Of a stretch of DNA of 64,000 nucleotides, positions 10,136 to 47,576 are shown piece by piece. Each line of letters begins with the position of its first letter. Positions within the stretch are counted from its first letter, which is position 1. Source of the DNA: Anaerolineae bacterium. GTDB taxonomy: Bacteria; Chloroflexota; Anaerolineae; B4-G1; SLSP01. Where the stretch lies: assembly GCA_034437735.1 (NCBI GenBank), contig DAOTTS010000056.1, positions 2,751-66,750 on the forward strand, given 5' to 3'. The notes under the pieces were generated by a model that was not told the DNA's origin, searched no databases, and saw only the letters and a list, made by a program, of their open reading frames with translations. A program made the position numbers and the translations under genes.

Positions 10136-10152
10136 GGAGATCGCAGATCTCC
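10136..10152. repeat. REP-like palindrome GGAGATC-GCA-GATCTCC (family B), orphan copy in the tal-dgoD intergenic region
   Basis: Perfect 7-bp inverted repeat. The same core recurs at 34135, 46644 and 47444. Confidence 0.6.
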
Positions 10153-23024: not shown

Positions 23025-23080
23025 TGTCTTTCCTTTCGTTAGGGGGGCGACAGTCATAAGTCACAAGTCAAACGTTCTCT

Positions 23081-23863
23081 CCGTCCAGGACGCTTCGGTA
23101 TGGCGTCCTGGACGGTCCGACGAGTCCTAATCCAATAAATAGCAGTCCAGCCCTTCAATCTCCTTCCGCTCCTCAAGATGCTCTTCAACAAATGACCGGT
23201 AGGTCTCAGCGTTCGCAAACCGATCCGGCACCAACGCGGAACTGACAAGCGTCCCATGCCTCAATCCAAGAATATCCCGATAGTTCGAGTACTGCCACCT
23301 CTCCGGTGATGCCGCAAGTCCCGCTTCCACCGGATTCACGTGGATATAGCGGGCAACGTGCCGGAAATACGATTCCTCATCCACCTCCACCCATTCATAA
23401 CGACCACGAAAGAGCGGTCCGTCTCGTTGCTGCTGTCTATTAATGCCTTGAACGTAGGACTGAAAGACGTGTTTCATAAACGGTGAGATGACGTCATCTG
23501 CCAAGGGCTCAACCAATAGATGGTAGTGATTCGGCATCAGACAATACGCCACGAATGAAACTGGGTAACGTTTTCTTCCGCGCTGGATTAGGCGTAGAAG
23601 ATAGATGTAATTTCTCTGCAGGAAGAAAATCCGCTCATGGTTAACGCCTCGGTTGTACAAGTGATAGAAATGGTGGGCTAGAAACTGCTGCCGCTGACGT
23701 GCCATCACTTCACTCCATATAATGAGGTAAACGTCGATCCTTACACTTATCGTACACCTAAAACGCCCACCGTCCAGGACGCTAGATACTCGCACAACAT
23801 CACAGATGTATCTCACTTTCAAAACTCCACCCAACGCATCACCCGATGCAGCGTCCTGGACGG
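23081..23863 (-). mobile_element. REPtron A: a RayT/IS200-like HUH tyrosine transposase gene (23127-23705) flanked by REP hairpins built on CCGTCCAGGACGC
   Basis: The left flank (23081-23115) is a perfect hairpin CCGTCCAGGACGC-ttcggtatg-GCGTCCTGGACGG. The right flank carries the inverted copies at 23770-23782 and 23851-23863. Confidence 0.65.
23127..23705 (-). CDS. REP-associated tyrosine transposase (RayT; IS200/IS605 TnpA-like Y1 HUH)
   Basis: 192 aa from MARQRQQF. The HUH motif is MPNHYHLL. The upstream part of the listed 437-aa ORF is antisense to the 23940 gene and was rejected. Confidence 0.7.
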   Translation of the reverse strand: MARQRQQFLAHHFYHLYNRGVNHERIFFLQRNYIYLLRLIQRGRKRYPVSFVAYCLMPNHYHLLVEPLADDVISPFMKHVFQSYVQGINRQQQRDGPLFRGRYEWVEVDEESYFRHVARYIHVNPVEAGLAASPERWQYSNYRDILGLRHGTLVSSALVPDRFANAETYRSFVEEHLEERKEIEGLDCYLLD

Positions 23864-23939
23864 GAAAGACGTTGCGCATCCATCCAAATGGCCTATAGTT
23901 GAGACACACTAATACAATCCGAACACGAAAGGAACGCTG

Positions 23940-24757: not shown

Positions 24758-25048
24758 ATGGCAACGTTACCTTTTGAAACAGAGAAACTGATCGAGCTTT
24801 GCCGCCAACACGATGTCACAATGTTGGGTGTCTTTGGCTCGATGGCGCGAGATGAAGCCACTGAAAAAAGCGATGTCGATCTTCTCGTGCGGTTTTCGCA
24901 ACAGAAAAGCCTGCTAGCCCTCATCCGTCTCGAACGGGAAGTCTCCGCACTTCTAGGCCGGGACGTAGATCTCGTCACAGAGGGAGCGTTAAGCCCTTAC
25001 TTGAAAGATCAAGTCAAGCACGATCTCAAGATTATCTATGAAGCATAA
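24758..25048 (+). CDS. mnt: MNT-family nucleotidyltransferase antitoxin (type VII TA, HepT/MNT)
   Basis: 96 aa with the GVFGSMARDEATEKSDVDLLV minimal-NTase motif (GS-x9-DxD). Confidence 0.8.
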   Translation: MATLPFETEKLIELCRQHDVTMLGVFGSMARDEATEKSDVDLLVRFSQQKSLLALIRLEREVSALLGRDVDLVTEGALSPYLKDQVKHDLKIIYEA

Positions 25049-25382
25049 CGATCGCATCTATCTGCTTCACATCCTGGATGCTATTGACACTATTGAGACG
25101 TATCTCCAGAGCGTCGATGAGGATGATTTCCAACTTCATAAGCTGACACAAGACGGGGTCATCCGACAGTTGGAGATCATAGGGGAAGCAACGAAGAACA
25201 TCTCTCACACCTTGCGACAGAAAAACGATCAAATACCGTGGCAAGATATCGCAGGAATGCGAGGCAAGTTGATCCACGCGTACTTCGGAGTCGACATAAG
25301 TACGGTCTGGCTCACGGCACAAGAGGATATTCCTGTACTCAAAGTCGAAATACGCAGAATTCTTGAGTCACTCGAGTCGTAA
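25038..25382 (+). CDS. hepT: HepT-like HEPN toxin (DUF86)
   Basis: 114 aa. It overlaps the antitoxin by 11 nt. The R-x4-6-H HEPN motif lies in RGKLIHAY. This is the classic MNT-HepT arrangement, in a low-GC island. Confidence 0.8.
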   Translation: MKHNDRIYLLHILDAIDTIETYLQSVDEDDFQLHKLTQDGVIRQLEIIGEATKNISHTLRQKNDQIPWQDIAGMRGKLIHAYFGVDISTVWLTAQEDIPVLKVEIRRILESLES

Positions 25383-45489: not shown

Positions 45490-45663
45490 GAGAGCACCCC
45501 CTCCCTCTGTCTCCCTCCCGAGGGAGGGAGGACCTGGAATGACCCGGGGGCTTGGCTATCCCGCTTTCCCCCCCACCGGGGGGAAAAACAAAGGGGGGCG
45601 ATCGGTGCTGAATAGCATTGGGTGGGTCAACCGGACGCACGTTTGCTTTCCACCGGGTCGCCT

Positions 45664-45719
45664 GTTAAGGTATGGTTGTTAAGATATGGCTGTTAAGATA
45701 TGGCTGTTAAGATATGGAC
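45664..45719. repeat. 4 x 14-bp tandem repeat TGTTAAGRTATGGY (AT-rich)
   Basis: Seen directly. It immediately precedes and runs into the 5' end of the ORF at 45700. Confidence 0.8.
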
Positions 45720-46088: not shown

Positions 46089-46619
46089 ATGGCACACACG
46101 CATACTTCCCGATCCCCCAAAGCCCACCTGATCCGACGCCTCCGCTATCTAGGGACGTGGGAGCTCTTCGACAGCTTTTTCTTGCCCGCGGTGATGGTTT
46201 TCGCGGCATCCACCCAGGATGTCCAGATCGGCCTTTTTGCCGTATATGCGATGGGGATCACCACGCTTATACTCTGGCAGGGTGCCGCGTATTGGTGGTT
46301 GAAGCTCCGATCGATCCGGGAGAGCGTCCCCCTCCGGATCCAGGCGTACGCGGTTTTCAAGCGAATCAACTGGGCGCTGCTGGCCCTGGCGCCCGTCGTG
46401 GGTCTTCTCTGCGCCGGACGTCCCGGACAGCCGCGTACGTTTAACCTTTTAGCGGGGACGTTCTTCGCGCTCCTGGCGCTTCTGGAGCAGGTGAACTACT
46501 ATTACGTCCAGTTGATGTACGACACCAAGGCCGACTGGCAGTATCTAATGCAGCACAAGCGGCTCAAGCGGGCCAGCCTCGCCCAAGATCTAGCGCGATG
46601 GCAAGGGACGAGACAATAG
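46089..46619 (+). CDS. Hypothetical membrane protein (about 4 TM)
   Basis: Hydrophobic helices. No family recognised. Confidence 0.4.
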   Translation: MAHTHTSRSPKAHLIRRLRYLGTWELFDSFFLPAVMVFAASTQDVQIGLFAVYAMGITTLILWQGAAYWWLKLRSIRESVPLRIQAYAVFKRINWALLALAPVVGLLCAGRPGQPRTFNLLAGTFFALLALLEQVNYYYVQLMYDTKADWQYLMQHKRLKRASLAQDLARWQGTRQ

Positions 46620-46643
46620 CGGAGTATCCCTCCCCCGCTCAAA

Positions 46644-47461
46644 GGAGATCGTCAGATCTCCGCCCACCTGCTAGATGACAGCCCCTCAAACTTCAGACGT
46701 GCCCCGCGACAGCGCGCTTCGCCGTTTCTGCTATCCTCCAATCAATAAAGCAACTCGCTGGCATTGTCCAGGAGAATGATCGCTGTTTCCTCAAGGACAT
46801 AGTAACGAGCACTGGACCAGAGATAAGCCTCCGCACACTCCACAAGATCCCAATGAGGTTGGCAAGGATTATTGTGGATGTACGTCATCTTTTAGCGGAG
46901 AAACGCTGGGGTGAACACGTCCTTCGCGTCGTAACTGGGTGCCCAGACCTTGTGGGCCCGCTTCCCCCGAACGGTCAGTCGCGTTAGCGCGGCCGAGTTC
47001 TTCCGCACGCGATACGCCCGCAGGAGGCGATCGGCAACGTGTTTCTTGAAGTCGCGGATTGTATCGCCTAACGGATCCTCTGCGCGGCACTGTAGAATCC
47101 GATGGATGTGGTTCGGCATAATGACGAAGGCATAAAGCTTGAAGCGTTTTCGAAGTCGCATACAGTCCAGGGTGTCCACAACGAGTCGTTTGGTGATGTC
47201 ACGTTGAAACAAAGGATAGTGGTGGACGCAGCTTGTCGTGACAAAGTAAAGATGGGCTGGGTTAAAGGTCGGGTGCCAACAGGTCATTGGATATCTCCTC
47301 TCTTGTGGGATGGACATTCCGGTGCCGGGCTCGAAGGAGAGGACGTTGGAAGGGCACATGCCTCTTCTACTTGCTTTTTGGGGGATGTCAACTACGTGGA
47401 TAGGGGTTGGAGATGGATTGAAACGAGTCTAGTCGTGTAGGACGGAGATCTGGCGATCTCC
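46644..47461 (-). mobile_element. REPtron B: a second RayT/IS200-like transposase gene (46892-47287) flanked by family-B REP palindromes GGAGATC-N4-GATCTCC (46644-46661 and 47444-47461)
   Basis: Both flanking hairpins were seen directly. They share a 7-bp arm with the orphan copies at 10136 and 34135. Confidence 0.65.
46892..47287 (-). CDS. REP-associated tyrosine transposase (RayT; IS200/IS605 TnpA-like)
   Basis: 131 aa from MTCWHPTFNPAHLYFVTTS. The HUH motif is MPNHIHRIL. Its sequence is distinct from the RayT at 23127. Confidence 0.65.
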   Translation of the reverse strand: MTCWHPTFNPAHLYFVTTSCVHHYPLFQRDITKRLVVDTLDCMRLRKRFKLYAFVIMPNHIHRILQCRAEDPLGDTIRDFKKHVADRLLRAYRVRKNSAALTRLTVRGKRAHKVWAPSYDAKDVFTPAFLR

Positions 47462-47576
47462 TTTGAGCGGTGTGGAAGTAAGCGAGGGTTCCGAACGCCA
47501 ATACAAGCGCTCCCGGCGGAGCTAGCAATCCGCCAGGAGCGTGATAGAGACCGAAAATCATGCAAGCGCGGTATCG

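Follow-up and report, generated by a model that had tools for sequence, protein, structure and literature searches.

Two probable REPtron-type loci in a Chloroflexota contig, one plausibly active and one apparently decaying

We found that a 64-kb stretch of a contig from an Anaerolineae bacterium (the whole stretch analyzed, hereafter called the window) contains two loci that are probably of the REPtron type (Ton-Hoang et al. 2012), that is, a resident and vertically inherited RayT/TnpAREP gene bracketed by hairpins that would represent the cognate substrate of the enzyme. Each RayT gene is present in a single copy in the window. Sequence comparisons place both products, RayT1 and RayT2, which share 25% identity, in the RayT/TnpAREP branch within the Y1 HUH transposases, while the NCBIfam model for IS200 (NF033573, cut-off 55) gave at most 17.3 bits for either of them. 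Both units are new instances of a kind that is already known; their REPs are devoid of the canonical GTAG, and they leave the current understanding of REPtron systems unchanged. All of the sequence features listed in a preliminary description of this DNA were recovered at the positions given there, far beyond chance expectation. As proposed there, each RayT gene has cognate palindromes of its own on either side, and these are inverted with respect to each other; the same association was found in homologous loci.

Unit 1 as a whole spans positions 23071-23873. Its gene, rayT1 (23127-23705, minus strand), is intact and encodes a RayT/TnpAREP-family Y1 HUH protein of 192 aa; its GC content is 0.50, compared to 0.61 for the window. 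The open reading frame and its NHYHLL motif had been correctly recognized before. Indeed, the sequence MPNHYHLL harbors the HUH motif (H60-Y61-H62), the catalytic Tyr120 lies within RYIHVNP, and in an alignment to E. coli TnpAREP (4ER8) Tyr120 aligned with Y115 and HUH with H. H60, H62, and Tyr120 are invariant in the RayT1-clade alignment, and RayT1 holds all 26 invariant columns of this alignment (27 sequences, RayT1 itself among them). The protein passed the Pfam Y1_Tnp model (PF01797) with 31.8 bits (gathering score, 23) and reached 74.9 bits with the NCBIfam model REP_Tyr_transpos (NF047646), just under the equivalog cut-off of 80. Furthermore, the RayT1-clade profile matched 4ER8 with an E value of 3e-9. 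The AlphaFold model of RayT1 (pLDDT, 91) also had 4ER8 as its best Foldseek match in the PDB (E = 7e-10, TM 0.65/0.75); the IS608/ISDra2 transposases came after it (E = 8e-6), and the predicted fold is nearer to TnpAREP than to the TnpA of IS200/IS605. RayT1 therefore resembles E. coli TnpAREP in its predicted fold and in its catalytic residues, at a sequence identity to 4ER8 of about 15%. A search of a viral contig collection returned no relatives of RayT1.

The hairpins of unit 1 (REP1) are built on a 13-nt arm, CCGTCCAGGACGC, that occurs at exactly four sites, namely, 23081 (+), 23103 (-), 23770 (+), and 23851 (-). We found no further arm in the 64-kb window at 0 to 1 mismatch. Nine additional matches all carried 2 mismatches, which fits the background (4.4 matches after shuffling). 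The rayT1 stop codon and the downstream doublet (23081-23115) are 11 nt apart, and 23 nt separate the doublet from the ATG of the next gene (23057). The doublet forms a perfect hairpin, CCGTCCAGGACGC - 9 nt - GCGTCCTGGACGG, with a stem of 13 bp and a loop of 9 nt (DNA folding, -18.2 kcal/mol; z = -5.2), which exceeds in length all other perfect short-loop hairpins of the window. The gene had been described as bracketed by perfect hairpins on both sides. This holds for the downstream element, but the upstream one (23770-23863), located 64 nt 5' of the rayT1 ATG, has its inverted 13-mer arms (23770-23782 and 23851-23863) 68 nt apart and is thus a long-loop doublet, with the layout of a REPIN (Bertels and Rainey 2011), instead of a compact hairpin. 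Its arms are perfectly complementary, and it folds at -22 to -23 kcal/mol (z about -5). A consensus scan of the 68-nt spacer gave no convincing promoter. The outer ends of the unit are delimited by a 24-nt inverted repeat, the left arm of which (23071-23094) is 83% complementary to the right arm (23850-23873).

TCTCT/GGA/CCA/TTC is found at the feet of the REP1 hairpins; GTAG is absent, and no stem has a mismatch. The 13-mer is itself near-palindromic as duplex DNA (core CGTCCWGGACG). We also considered whether REP1 would correspond to the CGTC-tagged REPs (PMC3733652) and rejected this, as the CGTC of the REP1 arm lies inside the stem and is not an unpaired tag. Since no dissemination of family 1 was seen within the window, the name REP, in the sense of a dispersed repeat in the source genome, is unproven for these hairpins. 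All clade-invariant residues are kept in RayT1 and the four 13-nt arms are perfect; unit 1 is intact and plausibly active.

The layout of unit 1, with arm sequences of their own, was found in five independent homologous loci sharing 46 to 56% identity. In four of them (L005, L006, L007, and L275, of which L275 belongs to candidate division KSB1), hairpins with identical arms of 13 to 15 bp are located 20 to 65 nt upstream of the ATG, and in all of these except L006 hairpins are also present 10 to 15 nt past the stop codon. The inverted layout bracketing the gene recurs in L005, L007, L008, and L275. The arms of the RayT1 relatives are lineage specific in sequence and share the common theme CYTTCC-N-GGRA. 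In a sister lineage (L008 and L009), unit 1 is found at the orthologous site, with the neighboring genes AP_endonuc_2 and FKBP shared and a DNA identity of about 95%; the arms and spacer of the 23770-23863 doublet are about 96% conserved. The sister lineage (SRR10018916/7) keeps the locus, yet its rayT1 bears a deletion of 163 nt.

Outside these relatives, the exact 13-nt arm of the window was found in dispersed hairpins of high copy number in a Deinococcales metagenome-assembled genome (MAG; CAXTKV01), where 104 kb of chunks contained 32 hairpins, indicating that the REP1 arm type is able to proliferate. The presence of the same arm in this unrelated MAG could reflect either a cross-phylum transfer of RayT/REP or an unusually conserved specificity. 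We also asked whether the window might simply be part of the Deinococcales MAG. This was rejected: the tetranucleotide correlation between the two was 0.85, and the MAG chunks are devoid of the hairpins of unit 2. The tetranucleotide correlation reached 0.94 when the window was compared to Ardenticatenaceae-type loci and 0.98 when its two halves were compared to each other. Named homologs and composition point to the Chloroflexota (Anaerolineae/Ardenticatenia-like) as the source. ERZ922772/ERR2407577, ERZ922773, and JGI 3300012009 contain the population to which the window belongs. In genome contigs, the pattern CGTCCWGGACG-N6-36-CGTCCWGGACG gave at least 120 matches, which among those listed were mostly in high-GC actinomycete coding DNA and in no case in the source genome; this pattern is too permissive for REP1. 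Full REP1 arms had 12 matches in metagenome contigs from samples other than the source, all of them unrelated.

The second gene, rayT2, looks like a decaying pseudogene in which the codon for the catalytic Tyr lies behind a premature stop. The open reading frame at 46892-47287 (minus strand) had been described as a second RayT gene unrelated to the first. The frame itself, its NHIHRIL motif (within MPNHIHRIL), its affiliation to the RayT family, and its divergence from RayT1 were all borne out, but this frame is only the first part of a 181-codon gene (46742-47287, minus strand) interrupted by an in-frame TAA at 46892-46894. This stop codon had been overlooked in the preliminary description. 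H60 and H62 of the HUH motif are present upstream of the stop, whereas the tyrosine helix, YIHNNP (Tyr136), is encoded in the same frame beyond it (46742-46888) and is therefore missing from the product. H60, H62, and the Tyr are invariant in the RayT2-clade alignment. Presence of the HUH and Tyr residues on alignment had been put forward as a check of the RayT assignments, their lack being named as evidence against them; RayT1 has both, but the RayT2 open reading frame lacks the catalytic Tyr, so for unit 2 the outcome was the adverse one.

In an intact relative with 97% identity (P0121), the position of the TAA is occupied by a CAA codon (Gln132), and P0247 likewise has CAA. Two additional changes affect conserved positions, namely, L63R, which adjoins the HUH motif, and P172L, at a nearly invariant proline. 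RayT2 passed the Pfam Y1_Tnp model with 27.4 to 27.9 bits, and its score with NF047646 rose from 62.8 bits for the open reading frame to 81.2 bits for the sequence rejoined across the stop (cut-off, 80). The best PDB sequence match of the RayT2-clade profile was the ISDra2 TnpA (E = 6e-4), while 4ER8 was matched with an E value of 0.024. Compared to the intact relative, rayT2 shows 15 synonymous and 6 nonsynonymous codon changes, indicating that it was under constraint until recently. The truncated 131-aa product was found in at least three independent assemblies and might conceivably retain some residual function. The possibility that the stop is a recurrent programmed feature was rejected, as the 130-aa members of the related cluster are N-terminally truncated and the close relatives have Gln at this position.

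The gene is flanked by two hairpins of a second family (REP2), one downstream at 46635-46665 (plus strand; GCTC-aaa-GGAGATC-GTCA-GATCTCC, hairpin at 46644-46661) and one upstream at 47440-47470 (minus strand; GCTC-aaa-GGAGATC-GCCA-GATCTCC on that strand, hairpin at 47444-47461). Together, they represent the two arms of an inverted repeat of 31 nt with 94% complementarity. Their stems are 7 bp long and perfect, GCTC is located 3 nt from the foot, and there is no GT[AG]G. Both copies fit the type found across the clade, GCTC-N3-NNNGATC-GYCA-GATCNNN. Hairpins of this type surround the gene in all of the loci of RayT2 relatives, with 29 in 20.5 kb at L268, 15 in 14.6 kb at L271, and 1 at L011, and the bracketing layout recurs in L268 and L271. 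At L011, a RayT2 homolog with 72% identity adjoins the same YhfC cluster as in the window, so that unit 2 is partly syntenic.

Two extra copies of family 2 had been reported away from the gene. Both are real and intergenic. The first, at 10136-10152 (minus strand), has the transaldolase gene on one side and the MR_MLE (dgoD-like) gene on the other, shows the sequence GGAGATC-N3-GATCTCC, and keeps GCTC-N3. The second, at 34135-34153, lies between a response regulator gene and a subtilase gene, has the sequence GGAGATC-N5-GATCTCC, and is devoid of the GCTC tag. Overall, GGAGATC-N3-5-GATCTCC was observed 4 times in the window, compared to about 0.003 times expected per simulated window. The preliminary description had taken these copies as visible dissemination and as a marker of genome plasticity. 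The two intergenic orphans do stand, but their loops of 3 and 5 nt are outside the family norm, one of them lacks GCTC, and the transposase appears dead. With two atypical-loop orphans and an apparently dead transposase, unit 2 looks like a case of decay and not of current plasticity.

On the model of E. coli TnpAREP and of the TnpA proteins of IS608 and ISDra2, RayT would act as a single-strand DNA endonuclease/transposase with an HUH metal site and one catalytic tyrosine. The palindromes would fold when the DNA is single stranded, e.g., on the lagging-strand template; RayT would bind the folded hairpin, cut beside it via a 5'-phosphotyrosine intermediate, and rejoin the strands. Hairpins would thereby be copied or moved, while the RayT gene itself would stay put. 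The sequences, the protein family and fold, the catalytic residues, the gene-hairpin architecture kept across lineages, the orthologous location of unit 1 in the sister lineage, and the pseudogenization of rayT2 are shown by our data, and from these we infer binding, cleavage, and mobilization by RayT, as well as the present activity or inactivity of the two units. Unit 2, in this scheme, is a decaying remnant: a nonsense codon precedes the tyrosine helix of its transposase gene, which also carries the substitutions L63R and P172L, no more than two hairpins typical of the family are left beside the gene, and the two dispersed ones have drifted in loop length, one of them having also lost its tag.

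Several observations count against this explanation. Neither hairpin family has GT[AG]G or a stem mismatch, and E. coli TnpAREP needs both the GT[AG]G tetranucleotide and the stem mismatch for binding and cleavage (PMC3333891). Recognition by RayT1 and RayT2 must thus differ from the sole tested model. Additionally, REP1 has no copy away from its gene in 64 kb, RayT1 stays just below the cut-off of the REP transposase model (74.9 versus 80 bits), and 4ER8 is not matched better than the ISDra2 TnpA by the RayT2-clade profile. Given that the only biochemically studied RayT requires GTAG and a bulge, a RayT1-type enzyme would read its hairpin differently, and we tentatively raise the possibility, which we hold to be rather doubtful, that RayT1-type loci form a distinct REPtron subclass with perfect hairpins made from near-palindromic 13- to 15-mers (CYTTCC-N-GGRA) and without GTAG or bulge.

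The absence of REP1 arms from the remainder of the window, where family 2 has two orphans, also raises the question of whether unit 1 might be a REPtron without a REP family, i.e., a domesticated or orphan RayT1 whose sole hairpins are the two adjacent doublets, possibly serving in autoregulation or as a reservoir. This is in agreement with the hairpins seen only beside the gene at L005, L006, L007, and L275 (6 to 20 kb each) and has precedents in the literature, since REPtrons exist in species without REP families (PMC3733652) and the flanking 16-mer of some RAYT groups has about 12 to 14 copies genome-wide (PMC5581495). [quoted passage not shown] We regard this reading of unit 1 as a serious possibility, if not quite a probable one.

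We consider it unlikely, on the other hand, that the units are autonomous insertion sequences of the IS200/IS605 type, moving as a whole, with the hairpins as their left and right ends. Such elements would account for the low GC content of the units (0.51 and 0.54, compared to 0.61) and for the inverted repeats at their bounds, and the homology of the window to L010, which is 95% identical, does end 10 to 14 nt past the downstream REP2, which would be expected for a unit in another context at L010, although this comparison covers 55 nt of flank. Nevertheless, neither gene is duplicated in the window, the sister lineage has unit 1 at the orthologous site, L011 shows partial synteny for unit 2, the IS200 model gives at most 17 bits (cut-off, 55) compared to 75 to 81 bits for the REP transposase model, both ends carry identical arms instead of distinct LE/RE hairpins, and the relatives carry arrays of many hairpins instead of two ends. 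Finally, the palindromes might be ordinary regulatory elements (dimer operators, terminators, or mRNA-stabilizing stems) that lie near RayT genes by chance. The near-palindromic REP1 13-mer does resemble an operator half-site pair, the REP1 hairpin separates rayT1 from a codirectional downstream gene, and the REP2 orphans are located 3' of genes. This reading is very improbable, as the gene and matching hairpins occur together in six RayT1-clade loci and at least five RayT2-clade loci with stems that are lineage specific. Moreover, no T tract follows any REP1 or REP2 hairpin, consensus scans called none of them an intrinsic terminator, and Rfam gave no match across the whole 64-kb window. The earlier suggestion that the REPs act as terminators or insulators is, in view of the missing T tracts, pure conjecture.

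The preferred reading, that of two REPtron-type loci, is in good agreement with the E. coli K-12 REPtron (tnpAREP/RayT with REP/BIME; 4ER8; PMC3333891, PMC3479197), in which a single-copy Y1 HUH gene at a fixed chromosomal site is bracketed by its cognate, inverted extragenic palindromes. Unlike in E. coli, where the enzyme requires both features, the two families here have neither a 5' GTAG guide nor a stem mismatch. Instead, REP1 has perfect 13-bp duplex stems from a near-palindromic 13-mer, and REP2 has stems of only 7 bp, a loop conserved as GYCA, and GCTC as a tag at a distance of 3 nt from the foot. The 23770-23863 doublet has the layout of the Pseudomonas REPINs (PMC3116915, PMC5581495), with inverted arms and a 68-nt spacer, and the loci resemble the Pseudomonas RAYTs in their vertical inheritance, in their single copy in the window, and in the presence of more than one RAYT/REP pair in the same stretch. 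They differ in that the family 2 transposase appears dead, in that the host belongs to the Chloroflexota and is not a proteobacterium, and in that family 1 is seen in the 64-kb window as two flanking doublets only. Bertels et al. report that Group 4 RAYTs are common in Caldilineae and have few flanking repeats. That a single genome may harbor more than one RayT/REP pair has already been described (PMC6006769, PMC3733652). Flanking secondary structures without GT[AG]G are also known from the TnpAY1 subclass 2.6 and class 3 loci with atypical REPs (Quentin et al. 2018, PMC6006769), and the foot tetranucleotide may vary, being CnGA in class 3 and GCTC in REP2. With IS200/IS605 elements (IS608, ISDra2), the units share the HUH-Y1 fold and, presumably, a hairpin-dependent single-strand chemistry. 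However, these elements occur in multiple copies, differ between their left and right ends, and are recognized by NF033573, none of which applies to units 1 and 2 in the 64-kb window.

The main value of these loci lies in their correct annotation. With its hairpins, rayT1 is probably a functional REP-associated transposase gene, while rayT2 is a pseudogene and ought to be left out of any count of active mobile-DNA systems. To the catalog of REP-like repeats outside the Proteobacteria, both hairpin types add non-GTAG examples, and the clade-wide consensus of the perfect 13-mer nested-palindrome doublet and of the GCTC-tagged GATC-GYCA-GATC stem-loop could seed genome-wide searches. In addition, the window and the sister lineage would each keep one working and one broken member of the pair, the broken one being rayT1 with its deletion in the sister lineage and rayT2 with its stop in the window, so that the two together could serve as a small natural experiment, a before/after comparison of hairpin populations upon RayT loss.

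The preliminary description listed two RayT transposase genes with REP hairpins, and all of its features were present in the window at the coordinates given. It was also right about the kind of system, as both genes match Pfam Y1_Tnp and related loci carry cognate hairpins. The first gene, rayT1 (positions 23127 to 23705, minus strand), encodes a protein of 192 residues that passes Y1_Tnp with 31.8 bits and just misses the cut-off of 80 bits on NCBIfam REP_Tyr_transpos (74.9 bits). When RayT1 was aligned to the E. coli TnpAREP structure (4ER8), its HYH lay over the HUH motif and its Tyr120 over the catalytic Y115. H60, H62, Y120 and 23 more columns were invariant in an alignment of RayT1 with 26 relatives (27/27 sequences), so that RayT1 carries all of them. 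Furthermore, the RayT1-clade profile matched 4ER8 (E = 3e-9), and the AlphaFold model of RayT1 (pLDDT 91) had 4ER8 as its top PDB match (E = 7e-10), with the IS608 and ISDra2 transposases behind it (about 1e-5). By analogy with characterized enzymes, unit 1 looks competent for hairpin binding, cleavage and rejoining.

The hairpins of unit 1 are built on the 13-mer CCGTCCAGGACGC (REP1), which occurs exactly four times in the window, at 23081 (+), 23103 (-), 23770 (+) and 23851 (-). No further copy with 0 or 1 mismatch was found across the 64-kb window, and the nine other matches, each with 2 mismatches, are in line with the background from shuffling (4.4 ± 2.1). The first pair (23081/23103) folds without mismatch into a 13-bp stem closed by a 9-nt loop (DNA folding energy, -18.2 kcal/mol; z = -5.2); no other perfect short-loop hairpin of the window is as long. 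The arms of the second pair (23770/23851) are separated by 68 nt and form a long-loop doublet (-22 kcal/mol; z = -5.0). Since the outermost arms are part of a longer inverted repeat of 24 nt (23071 to 23094 and 23850 to 23873; 83% complementary), unit 1 is symmetrical: doublet, gene, doublet. The 13-mer is nearly palindromic by itself (core CGTCCWGGACG), and only three positions therefore define the orientation of an arm. Within the 64-kb window, REP1 is evidenced in this genome just by the two doublets beside rayT1.

In both families, related loci indicate that the hairpins are cognate to their genes. The RayT1 relatives compared (46 to 56% identity) came from four further lineages, of which one carries the label candidate division KSB1. 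All four loci harbored hairpins with identical 13- to 15-bp arms 20 to 65 nt 5' of the start codon, and all except L006 had an additional hairpin 10 to 15 nt past the stop codon. The arms differed by lineage (ACCCTTCWGAAGGGT, GCTTCCSGGAAGC, YCTTCCGGGTTGC and ATCCTCCCGAAGGCT), with a CYTTCC-N-GGRA theme common to them and to CCGTCCAGGACGC. RayT2, which shares 25% identity with RayT1, has relatives (61 to 72% identity) ringed by a single hairpin type, GCTC-N3-[NNN GATC]-GYCA-[GATC NNN], whose variation is confined to the outer three stem pairs. These GCTC-tagged hairpins numbered 29 over 20.5 kb in L268, an Ardenticatenaceae MAG, and 15 over 14.6 kb in L271; L011 had a single copy, next to its RayT2-type gene. 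In L268:6800-12700 (GCA_027493995.1, 10.4-Mb contig), dense tandem clusters flank an intact RayT2-type gene on both sides and reach up to 3 kb away. They comprise at least four stem subfamilies (GGGGATC, GCGGATC, CCTGGATC and GCCGGATC) alternating in BIME-like pairs, and every unit contains two GATC (Dam-type) sites.

The second gene had been presented as a RayT gene, which overstated activity and overlooked that rayT2 is a pseudogene with an in-frame TAA and the substitutions L63R and P172L. The ORF at 46892 to 47287 (minus strand) passes Y1_Tnp and ends at the TAA before the tyrosine helix, which is read past the stop in the same frame (KMTYIHNNP...). Of the catalytic residues expected on alignment, the HUH and tyrosine residues are thus complete in RayT1 (H60, H62 and Y120) but not in the RayT2 ORF. 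Rejoined over the stop, RayT2 has 181 codons, scores 81.2 bits on REP_Tyr_transpos and is 97% identical to the intact 181-residue protein P0121, which is encoded on a short contig of an NCBI metagenome assembly (GCA_000206465.1). The stop position is occupied by Gln (CAA) in P0121 and likewise in P0247. L63R directly follows the HUH motif, and P172L affects a nearly invariant proline. The same population yielded the truncated 131-residue product in no fewer than three independent assemblies, indicating that the stop is no sequencing error. The 15 synonymous and 6 non-synonymous codon differences from the intact relative indicate that the inactivation is recent.

Two REP2 copies (GGAGATC-N4-GATCTCC, at 46644 and 47444) flank rayT2 within a 31-nt inverted repeat (94% complementary) and fit the clade consensus exactly. 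The claimed dissemination of this family holds in that two intergenic orphans are real, but it was overstated, as their loops are altered: the copy at 10136 has a 3-nt loop and retains the GCTC-N3 tag, and that at 34135 has a 5-nt loop and lacks the GCTC tag. Four matches of this type compare with about 0.003 expected in each simulated window. Moreover, all four share the lineage-specific outer stem GGA/TCC, which argues that they are mutually related rather than chance look-alikes. REP2 is evidenced in this genome, over the 64-kb window, just by these two flanking copies and two orphans. Such few, drifting hairpins, compared to the dense arrays of intact relatives, fit decay once the transposase had been lost. 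The sequence does not support the proposed terminator or insulator role: T tracts are missing 3' of all hairpins, a terminator scan called no intrinsic terminator at the hairpins, and Rfam gave no match.

Both loci share the architecture of the E. coli REPtron (PMC3333891). However, E. coli TnpAREP depends on a GT[AG]G foot and a stem mismatch (PMC3333891), and REP1 and REP2 have neither. Real as these departures from the E. coli model are, they have precedent: around genes of subclass 2.6 and class 3, Quentin et al. noted atypical structures that lack GT[AG]G (PMC6006769). RAYTs are also on record from Chloroflexi-type lineages, where few repeats flank them (Group 4; PMC5581495). Genomes with several RayT genes, in which every gene is paired with a palindrome family of its own, have been described (PMC6006769, PMC3733652), and both units add members to this known type. 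By analogy with known REPtron/RAYT systems, the mechanism is most likely one of binding, cleavage and rejoining: once folded, a single-stranded hairpin would be bound by the enzyme and cut through the HUH/tyrosine site, and the strands would then be rejoined, the hairpins being moved or copied while the transposase gene would stay in place. Judged against this scheme, unit 2 does not look competent.

In a sister lineage from another sample pair (SRR10018916/7; contigs L008 and L009; about 95% DNA identity), unit 1 lies between AP_endonuc_2 and FKBP as in the window, and these shared neighbours place it at this site since the lineages split. There, rayT1 (L008:868-1224 and L009:454-810) has lost the HUH region through a 163-nt internal deletion, and its remaining codons show 5 synonymous and 14 non-synonymous differences from the window copy; an invariant Asn is among the residues changed. 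Downstream, the short-loop hairpin has acquired stem mismatches, and the upstream long-loop doublet is still perfect. From its sequence, unit 1 is predicted to be intact in the window lineage and dead in this one. Directly adjoining unit 1 is a second GC-poor island (24758 to 25382, plus strand; GC, 0.46 to 0.50), in which overlapping genes for a nucleotidyltransferase (NTP_transf_2, 96 residues) and a HepT-like protein (114 residues) have the layout of an MNT/HEPN toxin-antitoxin module.

As for unit 2, the 72% identical homologue in L011 adjoins the same YhfC gene cluster as rayT2. The similarity to an intact, 95% identical rayT2 unit (L010; ABPV01013379.1, GCA_000206465.1) stops 10 to 14 nt past the downstream REP2, and the 55 nt of flank compared (L010:745-809 with window positions ~46560 to 46630), the sole hint of this kind, suggest a different genomic context. 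The low GC of units 1 and 2 (0.51 and 0.54, versus 0.61) fits an ultimately foreign origin. At 45499 to 45586, just upstream of an ORF starting at 45700, lies an intergenic cluster of C/G-run palindromes (CCCTCCCTC...GAGGGAGGG, CTCCCTCCCGAGGGAGGGAG and TTTCCCCCCCACCGGGGGGAAA) without Rfam match.

Among the 120 matches listed in a contig pattern scan, 14 came from one MAG, uncultured Deinococcales bacterium public_SRR11456923_metawrap_bin.5 (CAXTKV01...; pieces L150, L157, L159, L160, L179, L188, L190, L202, L229, L234, L238, L248, L253 and L254). Its dispersed hairpin, AGAACA-CCGTCCWGGACGC, a 10- to 22-nt loop and GCGTCCWGGACGG-TGTTCT, was present in 32 copies in the 104 kb retrieved, within which no RayT1 or RayT2 homologue was found. 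The window is not part of this MAG, as its tetranucleotide correlation was 0.85 with the MAG, compared to 0.94 with Ardenticatenaceae-type loci and 0.98 between its own halves. The 13-nt core of the hairpin is identical to the REP1 arm, which may be due either to a RayT/REP pair having been transferred or to convergence in specificity.
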